The notes beneath the pieces were generated by a model. The model was not told the origin of the DNA and searched no databases. It worked only from the letters and a program-made list of their open reading frames with translations. The position numbers and the translations under genes are program-made. A stretch of DNA of 64,000 nucleotides from an uncultured Eubacteriales bacterium (lineage in GTDB: Bacteria; Bacillota; Clostridia; TANB77; UBA1234). This document shows positions 47,527 to 48,202 of the stretch, one piece after another. The DNA is taken from contig CAYMVI010000004.1 of NCBI GenBank assembly GCA_964394075.1, positions 28,563 to 92,562 on the forward strand. Reading direction: 5' to 3'. Position 1 is the stretch's first letter. Each line of letters starts with the position of its first letter.

Positions 47527-48087
47527 ATGATTAAAAAAATTACATACGTTACTGGCAACTGGGCAAAGATTGCCAGTGCTAGACAAATATTAGAACCACT
47601 TGGAATCGAAGTAGATAATATCAAAATGGATACTATAGAAATCCAAGCTGATGACGTAGAAGACATCGCAAAATACTCTGCTAAATGGGCTAGCAAACAG
47701 CTTAAATGCGATGTACTAAAAAATGATAGTGGACTATTTGTAGAATCGTTAAAAGGTTTTCCTGGACCTTATACACATTATGCAGATGATACTCTTGGTG
47801 AAGATGGTTTGTTAAAACTTTTAGCTGGCGAAGAAAATCGTCGTGCATATTTCAAAGAAGTTTTAGCCTATTGCGAATATGGCAAAGAACCAATCACATT
47901 CGTAGGAATCACACCTGGAACAATAGCATTAGAGAAGTCCGGAACATACGGATGGAGTTGGGATTTCATCTTCATACCAGATGGTTCAGACAAAACTTTA
48001 GCTTGCTATCCCGATGAAGAAAGATGGAAATTCTGGAGCTTAGATTCATACAAAAAACTAGTTGATTATCTAAAAGAAAATAATTAG
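47527..48087 (+). CDS. Ham1/RdgB-family non-canonical NTP pyrophosphatase paralogue
   Basis: MIKKITYVTGNWAKI...SGLFVESLKGFPGPYT Ham1 motifs; ATG 47527 after GAAAGGAG. Confidence 0.65.
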   Translation: MIKKITYVTGNWAKIASARQILEPLGIEVDNIKMDTIEIQADDVEDIAKYSAKWASKQLKCDVLKNDSGLFVESLKGFPGPYTHYADDTLGEDGLLKLLAGEENRRAYFKEVLAYCEYGKEPITFVGITPGTIALEKSGTYGWSWDFIFIPDGSDKTLACYPDEERWKFWSLDSYKKLVDYLKENN

Positions 48088-48202
48088 GGACGACTTGACC
48101 AAACAGGGACGCCCTCATTTGGACACTTCGAAAACTTTGAAGCATGAAATATTGCTTGCAAAGTGTCCAAATGAGGGCGTCCCTGTTTGGTCAAGTCGTC
48201 CC
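48087..48202. repeat. Palindromic repeat element, copy B: perfect 42-bp inverted repeat sharing the 34-bp core of copy A, loop in opposite orientation
   Basis: GGGACGACTTGACCAAACAGGGACGCCCTCATTTGGACACTT (48087-48128) and its exact reverse complement (48161-48202); the loop reverse-complements to near-match the copy A loop. Confidence 0.9.

Follow-up and report, generated by a model that had tools for sequence, protein, structure and literature searches.

A rare palindromic repeat directly downstream of stop codons at two unlinked loci in an uncultured Eubacteriales genome

We analyzed a 64,000-nucleotide stretch of DNA from an uncultured Eubacteriales bacterium (positions 28,563 to 92,562 of contig CAYMVI010000004.1, hereafter the window) and found that a long palindrome occurs there at two unlinked loci. 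The two copies, designated A and B, are 34 kb apart and are flanked by unrelated genes. Each begins 0 to 3 nt from the TAG stop codon of a gene, a place where element-free alleles in relatives carry canonical terminators composed of an A tract, a stem, and a T tract (L001, L005, and L020 at locus A; L013 and L012 at locus B). The interpretation that we favor, and to which we give about even confidence, is that the copies represent a rare, clade-restricted, noncoding palindrome resembling REPINs and SPRITEs that occupies the terminator slot and has been copied at least once. The element is of a commonplace type, a bacterial 'junk/terminator' repeat and not a novel system, and we have filed it among the small palindromic intergenic repeats without assigning it to a named family.

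Copy B forms a perfect hairpin of 118 bases, in which two arms that are exact reverse complements over 43 bp enclose a loop of 32 nt, and the pairing reaches 48 nt when two mismatches are tolerated. The perfect 42-bp arms that had originally been described (48087–48128 and 48161–48202) lie inside this exact pairing. The GC content of copy B is 48%, compared with 33% for the window. When the 156-nt stretch from 48070 to 48225 was folded as RNA, the predicted free energy was −95.6 kcal/mol versus −32 ± 3.7 kcal/mol for dinucleotide shuffles (z −17.4), and no match to the 34-nt core of the arm (TGACCAAACAGGGACGCCCTCATTTGGACACTTC) occurred in any of 100 shuffled windows. When the folds of all intergenic regions were surveyed, we found that the ordinary terminator hairpins of the window have stems of 10 to 17 bp and energies of approximately −17 to −30 kcal/mol, and that copies A and B are its only long perfect hairpins. 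Each arm of copy B carries three GGGAC-like motifs (GGGACGACT, GGGACGCCC, and TGGACACTT). Moreover, a single 34-nt arm is itself an imperfect palindrome (TGaCCAAA-C-AGGG-ACG-CCCT-CA-TTTGGaCA; −6 kcal/mol, z −4.4), with a fold equaled in 1 of 200 shuffles. The features of the two loci, in window coordinates, are as follows.

13052–13513, minus strand: tsaE, downstream of copy A.
13592–13712, no strand assigned: allele-specific block of locus A, from the third base of the transglycosylase stop codon (TAG here, TAA in L001) up to the shared sequence CGTTTTTGGG.
13597–13609, no strand assigned: partial third arm piece TTGTCCAAACGAG, inside the allele-specific block.
13610–13708, no strand assigned: copy A, with 34-bp perfect arms (13610–13643 and 13675–13708) and a 31-nt loop.
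13712–14410, minus strand: monofunctional transglycosylase gene (PF00912), with its TAG stop 3 nt away from copy A.
47527–48087, plus strand: Ham1-like gene (PF01725), whose TAG stop (48085–48087) abuts copy B.
48086–48203, no strand assigned: copy B, whole hairpin (perfect arms of 43 bp, loop of 32 nt).
48086–48128, plus strand: left arm of copy B, AGGGACGACT followed by TGACCAAACAGGGACGCCCTCATTTGGACACTT, overlapping the final bases of the Ham1-like TAG stop.
48087–48095, plus strand: outer layer GGGACGACT, with its partner AGTCGTCCC at 48194–48202.
48096–48129, plus strand: 34-nt arm core common to copy A, an imperfect palindrome by itself.
48129–48160, plus strand: loop or spacer of copy B, containing a small inner hairpin (AAGCA..TGCTT).
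48161–48203, plus strand: right arm of copy B.
48204–48217, plus strand: spacer TCTCGTTTCAAAAA leading to the ABC-F stop; its CTCGTTT is also present 3′ of copy A.
48218–50098, minus strand: ABC-F ATPase gene, convergent with the Ham1-like gene, with two ABC_tran domains, ABC_tran_Xtn, and ABC_tran_CTD; TGA stop at 48218–48220.

The original prediction that the two loci share a repeated palindromic unit with a 34-bp core proved correct, in that the four 34-nt arms do not differ from one another at any position. The 156-nt region containing copy A has a predicted RNA fold of −78 kcal/mol (z −12). The loops are less alike than the invariant arms, differing by approximately 24%, and they align best as reverse complements (25 of 33 positions identical, score 16, versus a score of 0 in the same orientation), which agrees with the near-match that had been reported between them. 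From this relationship the original prediction had concluded that the element is inserted in both orientations. That conclusion does not hold, because the two loops point the same way with respect to the genes at whose stop codons the copies lie (the transglycosylase gene on the minus strand and the Ham1-like gene on the plus strand), and because, as described below, the loop of one ortholog of copy B is flipped in place. It had also been proposed that the 8 bp by which the arms of copy B exceed the core are partly retained beside copy A; some similarity is indeed present there, but it amounts to only about four matching bases (ACGA).

The placement of copy B is as originally described: its first base is the G (or the A) in the stop codon, TAG, of the Ham1-like gene, and the gene that faces it from the other side is the ABC-F gene, whose TGA stop is separated from the end of copy B by 14 nt. 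U-rich sequence follows the copy B stem on both strands (TCTCGTTTC and AATTATTTTCTTTT). At locus A, a promoter-like site (13579–13551) lies between copy A and tsaE. The element can be described as two inverted imperfect palindromes of approximately 30 nt, each with a GGG-ACG-CCC center, arranged around a variable spacer of approximately 30 nt, and it occupies the terminator slot directly 3′ of a stop codon. RNA transcribed from either strand would fold into a perfect hairpin of 34 to 43 bp followed by U-rich sequence, and this hairpin would serve as the transcript-end structure, a bidirectional one, for the flanking genes. By analogy with Correia elements, whose long hairpins are cleaved by RNase III (PMC10969869), it would probably also be a substrate for this enzyme. 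On this reading, the repeat has given rise to a copy at another locus at least once, and the perfect arms and flipped loop are best explained by intrastrand template switching or by recombination between the arms. Quasipalindromes are well known to mutate by template switching (PMC7202029).

Relatives were compared at locus A by using Logan contigs that encode a TsaE protein identical to that of the window. Four contigs with 96 to 100% nucleotide identity to the window (L002–L004 and L006) carry the element at this locus and break inside an arm. In contrast, L005 (98.7% identical) lacks copy A and has another palindrome (GGGGACGCCCCTTGAATT...) followed by a terminator, L001 (93–96% identical) has a plain terminator, and the metagenome-assembled genome (MAG) L020 (84–92% identical) has a terminator of the L005 type. 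Thus, copy A is found only in strains that are 96 to 100% identical to the window. Copy A was therefore gained recently, and close strains still differ in its presence. The loops of copies A and B differ by about 24% even though copy A arose within a group of strains that are 96 to 99% identical, and for this reason the source of copy A was probably a third, unseen copy.

Two further repeats were observed in these relatives. The locus A palindrome of L005 (TTAGGGGACGCCCCTTGAATTGCGAAAATTTGAATTCAAGG...; L005:1–113, Logan SRR15510138) contains the contig end, which suggests that this palindrome might also be repeated or hairpin-forming in its genome. In L020 (GCA_054275015.1), a dispersed repeat of approximately 64 nt with a GGGGACAC.CCTTGT core occurs at 10700–10765 and 14936–15000, in the Transgly/TsaE and Lon/FeoA spacers 4 kb apart. 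This repeat is internally duplicated (TTTTCGCGAGTTGGGGACAC...), and its unit is also present in L005; the window carries neither copy at the equivalent sites. Motifs of the form GGGAC(A/G)C occur in alternative alleles of both loci (L005, L012, and L020). These shared motifs hint at a wider mosaic family in which the GGGGACAC-core repeats of L020 and L005 would be joined by the element of the window, and we mention it as a lead only. An nhmmer search did not link the window element to the hairpins of L012 or L020 (E value of 2.1 or no match).

Locus B likewise varies among relatives. L013 (83–88% identical) lacks the element, and a simple bidirectional terminator is found there instead. L012 (85.5% identical) lacks the 34-nt core and has a short terminator set in a GGGAC...GTCCC frame, both outer junctions of which are common to copy B. 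In this contig (L012:1058–1125, Logan ERR15157073), an imperfect outer pair (GGGACACTCTT and GAAGGGCGTCCC) encloses an ordinary terminator, AAAAAGACCACTTGAA-TAACT-TTCAAGTGGTCTTTTT. The two mismatches of the outer pair would be G-U wobbles only in RNA of the ABC-F sense. The outer layer of copy B (GGGACGACT/AGTCGTCCC) is lacking from copy A, and the ortholog L007 has it on the Ham1 side alone. Because L012 shares the outer junctions in the absence of the core, these extra 8 to 9 bp may belong to locus B as an outer layer and not mark the ends of a mobile unit.

In four other relatives (L014, L016, L017, and L018), the genes downstream of the Ham1-like gene are different and the element is absent. 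The L016 gene (L016:3001–3560, ENA ERZ28653727), which has a different downstream neighbor, contains an in-frame TGA codon (…TLA*FPDEERW…) and may be a pseudogene or reflect a sequencing error. In L014 (10819–16450) and L018 (10819–13283), the place of the ABC-F gene is taken by a type II CRISPR-Cas locus comprising cas9, cas1, cas2, and at least 15 repeats of 36 nt (ATTATATCATATCAGAATGTAGTAAGGAACTATAAC). The Ham1 protein of these two lineages is approximately 82 to 84% identical to that of the window, and a defense island with a type I restriction-modification HsdR, AbiEi/AbiEii, and GmrSD lies upstream.

The related lineages therefore do not carry uniform sequence at the two loci but differ from one another at both, as had been anticipated from the proposed presence/absence polymorphism. 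The expectation of empty sites was only partly realized: element-free alleles exist at both loci, but whole hairpins are exchanged for one another and a clean empty site is not found. Because element-free alleles exist at both loci, we favor gain and loss of the element.

The most informative relative is L007, a MAG whose locus B flanks are 81 to 83% identical to those of the window and which retains the long palindrome; copy B is thus shared with another lineage and is older than copy A. Third codon positions of the Ham1-like and ABC-F genes are only 64 to 69% identical between L007 and the window, whereas the arms are identical at 79 of 79 positions and the loop, when aligned in the flipped orientation, at 22 of 24, with a 9-nt indel (L007 being shorter). 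The probability that 44 independent sites would all be unchanged at 35% divergence is approximately 6e-9. Two explanations present themselves: selection on the sequence, or its recent acquisition (or reacquisition) at the same site in both lineages. Correction between the arms of a palindrome was set aside as a cause of this near-identity because it cannot produce identity between lineages. On the ABC-F side, the 20-nt block AGTCGTCCCTTCTCGTTTCA (48194–48213) is absent from L007.

Relative to the flanking genes, the loop of L007 is inverted compared with that of copy B, and the Ham1-side junction (TAGGGACGACTTGACC) is unchanged. Because the flip occurred at the same site with this junction kept, loop orientation changes in place and is therefore no indicator of the orientation of insertion. 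A flip of the spacer between the inverted arms would account most simply for the L007 loop.

The element is rare. Searches of the window by exact, mismatch-tolerant, blastn-short, and nhmmer methods recovered only two copies, and neither blastn-short nor an nhmmer profile revealed degenerate copies across the window and 20 loci. A 19-mer of the arm was found at a single locus in 185,579 species-representative genomes, namely the copy B ortholog of L007, an uncultured Eubacteriales MAG. The same 19-mer had no match in viral contigs, plasmids, or phages. In JGI metagenomes it gave two single, non-hairpin matches in GC-rich contigs (L008 and L009), which we rejected as copies of the element given that approximately three chance matches are expected on a rough guess of a collection of about 400 Gb. 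Six-frame arm peptides had no match among 5.8 billion predicted proteins. When the window was scanned against Rfam with gathering thresholds, only tRNAs passed, and an E-value scan at the element gave only subthreshold matches to generic miRNA and hairpin models. A literature search on the GGGACGCCC core produced no relevant report. We conclude that the palindromic repeat is a rare family confined to one clade. Note that the scan of species representatives did not return the two copies of the window itself; because of this, the source genome is not a representative, and any representative of its species therefore lacks the exact 19-mer, in line with presence or absence at the strain level.

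Several findings weigh against a copied, REPIN/SPRITE-like terminator palindrome. No transposase, including Y1_Tnp or RAYT, was identified among the approximately 40 open reading frames (ORFs) of the window that were scanned against Pfam. Target-site duplications are absent at both copies (flanks AATTA/G...T/TCTCG for copy B and TAGAAA/.../CTCGTTT for copy A), and the alleles differ by replacement of whole hairpins, with neither a clean empty site nor a clean insertion boundary. Copy number is very low in all collections searched. With regard to termination, a consensus terminator scan called no terminator at either locus, the loops being too long, and only a weak U tract directly follows the stem of copy A. 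Finally, a neutral role as a terminator does not explain the near-identity of the whole element across approximately 35% neutral divergence, and this near-identity between diverged lineages is the one remaining puzzle.

A possible but rather doubtful alternative dispenses with a mobile element altogether. Terminator hairpins would evolve rapidly, growing, shrinking, and flipping in place through template switching and deletion between internal direct repeats, and the likeness of copies A and B would derive from a rare ectopic template switch or from gene conversion at microhomology (GGACACT/GGGAC), with no dedicated enzyme. This proposal is compatible with the wholesale replacement of intergenic hairpins, the lack of target-site duplications, the low copy number, the in-place flip in L007, and the recurrence of GGGAC(A/G)C motifs in the alternative alleles noted above. 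In addition, the arms of L012 resemble, by eye, those of copy B after deletions between GGAC..GGAC on the left and CGTCCCT..CGTCCCT on the right, and the L012 loop has AACTTT[C/G]AAG in common with the window loops. Nevertheless, the nhmmer result does not support homology to the L012 and L020 hairpins, and a 99-nt block with homologous loops at sites 34 kb apart requires a copying event by any mechanism. The loop difference of about 24% within a strain group that is 96 to 99% identical points instead to an unseen source copy, and arms that remain 100% identical over approximately 35% neutral divergence would not be expected of neutral evolution in place.

A second alternative, which we consider unlikely, attributes the element to purifying selection on a sequence-specific functional site, such as a repeated arm with GGGAC(G) that is bound by a DNA- or RNA-binding protein or a structured double-stranded RNA regulator of the convergent gene pair, with repetition being secondary. 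The contrast in L007 between the arms and loop on the one hand and third codon positions on the other speaks for this idea, and the three GGGAC-like motifs per copy B arm would fit it as well. However, the element is dispensable, being absent from L012 and L013, which are at about the distance of L007, and from the near-identical strains L001 and L005. Furthermore, the flanking genes of the two loci are unrelated, Rfam contains no matching family, and orientation relative to the flanks is not conserved. Similarly improbable, in our estimation, is a reading in which the element is more than a passive repeat, being either a terminator-homing palindromic unit or a sequence-specific functional hairpin that a dedicated protein recognizes and that is reacquired or actively maintained at the same site across lineages. 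Such an element would explain why it is approximately 95 to 100% identical as a whole between lineages with only approximately 65% identity at neutral sites, its patchy distribution among equally related lineages, and its constant displacement of the resident terminator exactly at the stop codon.

A classical MITE (miniature inverted-repeat transposable element), which would be a deletion derivative of an insertion sequence (IS) with terminal inverted repeats (TIRs) that is mobilized in trans by a DDE transposase and generates target-site duplications, is somewhat less probable still. The element is small, noncoding, palindromic, repeated, and polymorphic among strains, as a MITE would be. However, direct repeats flank neither copy, the ends of the two copies are unlike, and, instead of short TIRs that bracket unrelated sequence, the element consists of a single long palindrome. 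Also inconsistent with a MITE are the absence of an IS or transposase in the window, the lack of plasmid, phage, or viral matches, and the GC content of 48% against 33%.

An artifact of assembly or amplification, such as a fold-back chimera, would be compatible with the fact that same-strain Logan contigs (L002–L004, L006, L010, and L011) break inside the arms and none spans the hairpin, but it is excluded in practice by L007, an independently assembled MAG of another lineage with the complete hairpin and its own differences at the orthologous site, and by multiple samples in which contigs from both sides of both loci enter the arms by 30 nt (44 nt in L010), breaks being expected of de Bruijn assemblies where arms are longer than k.

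Several other identities were considered and rejected. A remnant of a CRISPR repeat or tracrRNA anti-repeat was entertained on account of the cas9 gene beside Ham1 in relatives, and the L014 repeat ATTATATCATATCAGAATGTAGTAAGGAACTATAAC proved unrelated to the arm. A parS site, a RacA ram site (GACGCC half-site), a SpoIIIE recognition sequence, and an integron attC site were considered and dropped because spacing and consensus do not appear to fit. The SpoIIIE recognition sequence (GAGAAGGG) occurs once in the flank.

The remainder of the window holds housekeeping and sporulation genes, including those for SpoIVA, SpoIIE, CotJ, TsaE/TsaB, Lon, FeoB, and pyruvate kinase, whose homologs are found in MAGs labeled Clostridia, Eubacteriales, or 'Mycoplasmatota' from gut-type metagenomes. 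Two genes of the Ham1 family (PF01725) are present, at 6654–7247 and 47527–48087. The Ham1-like protein encoded beside copy B belongs to a distinct subfamily that is widespread in gut MAGs and is fused to an ASCH domain in some homologs (P0060, 296 amino acids). A very large ORF of 2288 amino acids on the minus strand (21251–28117), whose L020 counterpart has only a faint match to MucBP, probably encodes a surface or adhesin protein. A different inverted repeat, with 27-nt arms that are 89% complementary and 104 nt apart (ATAAAAATATATATCAAGGTGCGGAGC and GCTCCGTACCCTGATGTATATTTTTAT), lies at 56199–56356 among small ORFs of no assigned function. The gene that it precedes has a DnaB_2 domain, and the repeat is upstream of it. 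Local GC content rises to 0.45 at 60001–62000 and 0.43 at 32001–34000, compared with approximately 0.31 elsewhere in the window. The former interval corresponds to a DEAD/HA2 helicase gene (60300–62552), a region that may be of foreign origin, and the latter holds a tRNA-Arg gene and an HD-domain gene.

If the favored reading is correct, a terminator-slot palindrome resembling REPINs and SPRITEs exists in uncultured, low-GC, spore-forming gut Clostridia, a group in which hardly any such repeats have been described. The loci also provide a natural example of why loop orientation must not stand for insertion orientation, and of terminator hairpins at fixed sites that are swapped wholesale between close strains. 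Practical consequences are small: short-read assemblies break at such elements, as the Logan contigs do, and the elements may alter the 3′-end stability of neighboring mRNAs. The feature that could lead further is the near-identity between diverged lineages.

Among known systems, REPINs consist of inverted imperfect palindromes and a spacer that together form one long, near-perfect hairpin of approximately 90 to 120 nt, in which conserved palindromic units surround variable spacers (PMC3337134). The element resembles them in this architecture and in the greater conservation of its palindromic units, its arms being identical even in L007 and its loops matching at 25 of 33 and 22 of 24 positions. 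REPINs are likewise extragenic, often lie near the 3′ ends of genes, and may be co-opted for transcription attenuation (PMC3337134). REPINs typically number tens to hundreds of copies per genome; two, both extragenic, are visible in the 64 kb covered here, and the RAYT tyrosine transposase that mobilizes REPINs in Pseudomonas and Enterobacteria has no counterpart among the approximately 40 ORFs scanned. Recognition of REP sequences by RAYTs involves a conserved GTAG-type tetranucleotide 5′ of the REP hairpin, and none is present in or beside the arms. The arm units are also longer (approximately 30 nt), and the host is not a proteobacterium but is represented by a MAG of low-GC, spore-forming Clostridia.

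In behavior, the closest match is SPRITE of Streptococcus pneumoniae, an oversized, terminator-like, dispersed Firmicute repeat that is located near the 3′ ends of coding sequences and enriched between convergent genes (PMC3049150). As with the window element, no target-site duplication has been established for SPRITE, no matching IS or transposase is known, and its copy number is low; it transposes slowly (PMC3049150). SPRITE differs in having an 18-bp stem, a long U tract, an AT-rich composition, and approximately 30 copies per genome, whereas the element described here has a perfect stem of 34 to 43 bp, is GC-rich relative to its genome, and has modest U tracts and two copies. The likeness is functional only, with no similarity in sequence. 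The Correia MITEs of Neisseria are also palindromic, at approximately 100 to 150 nt, and are cotranscribed with adjacent genes to give long hairpins that are cut by RNase III and can terminate transcription (PMC10969869). However, nothing seen here corresponds to their defined 26-nt TIRs, their TA target duplication, their IHF sites, or their copy numbers in the hundreds.

An ordinary bidirectional intrinsic terminator shares with copy B its position after a stop codon between convergent genes, its GC-rich stem, and its U-rich flanks. The element departs from such terminators in its stem, which is three to four times the longest other stem in the window, its 31- to 32-nt loop, its repetition at a second locus, and its conservation beyond the neutral level. 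With stems of 34 to 43 bp and loops of 31 to 32 nt, it falls outside the usual definition of an intrinsic terminator (a 5- to 20-bp stem, a 3- to 8-nt loop, and a T run). Finally, in minute hairpin-loop inversions, known mainly from plastid noncoding DNA, and in template switching at quasipalindromes (PMC7202029), loops flip while the flanks stay fixed and the arms remain complementary. These represent a process rather than a family, one that would account for the loop and the perfect arms of the element but not for its spread to a second locus.

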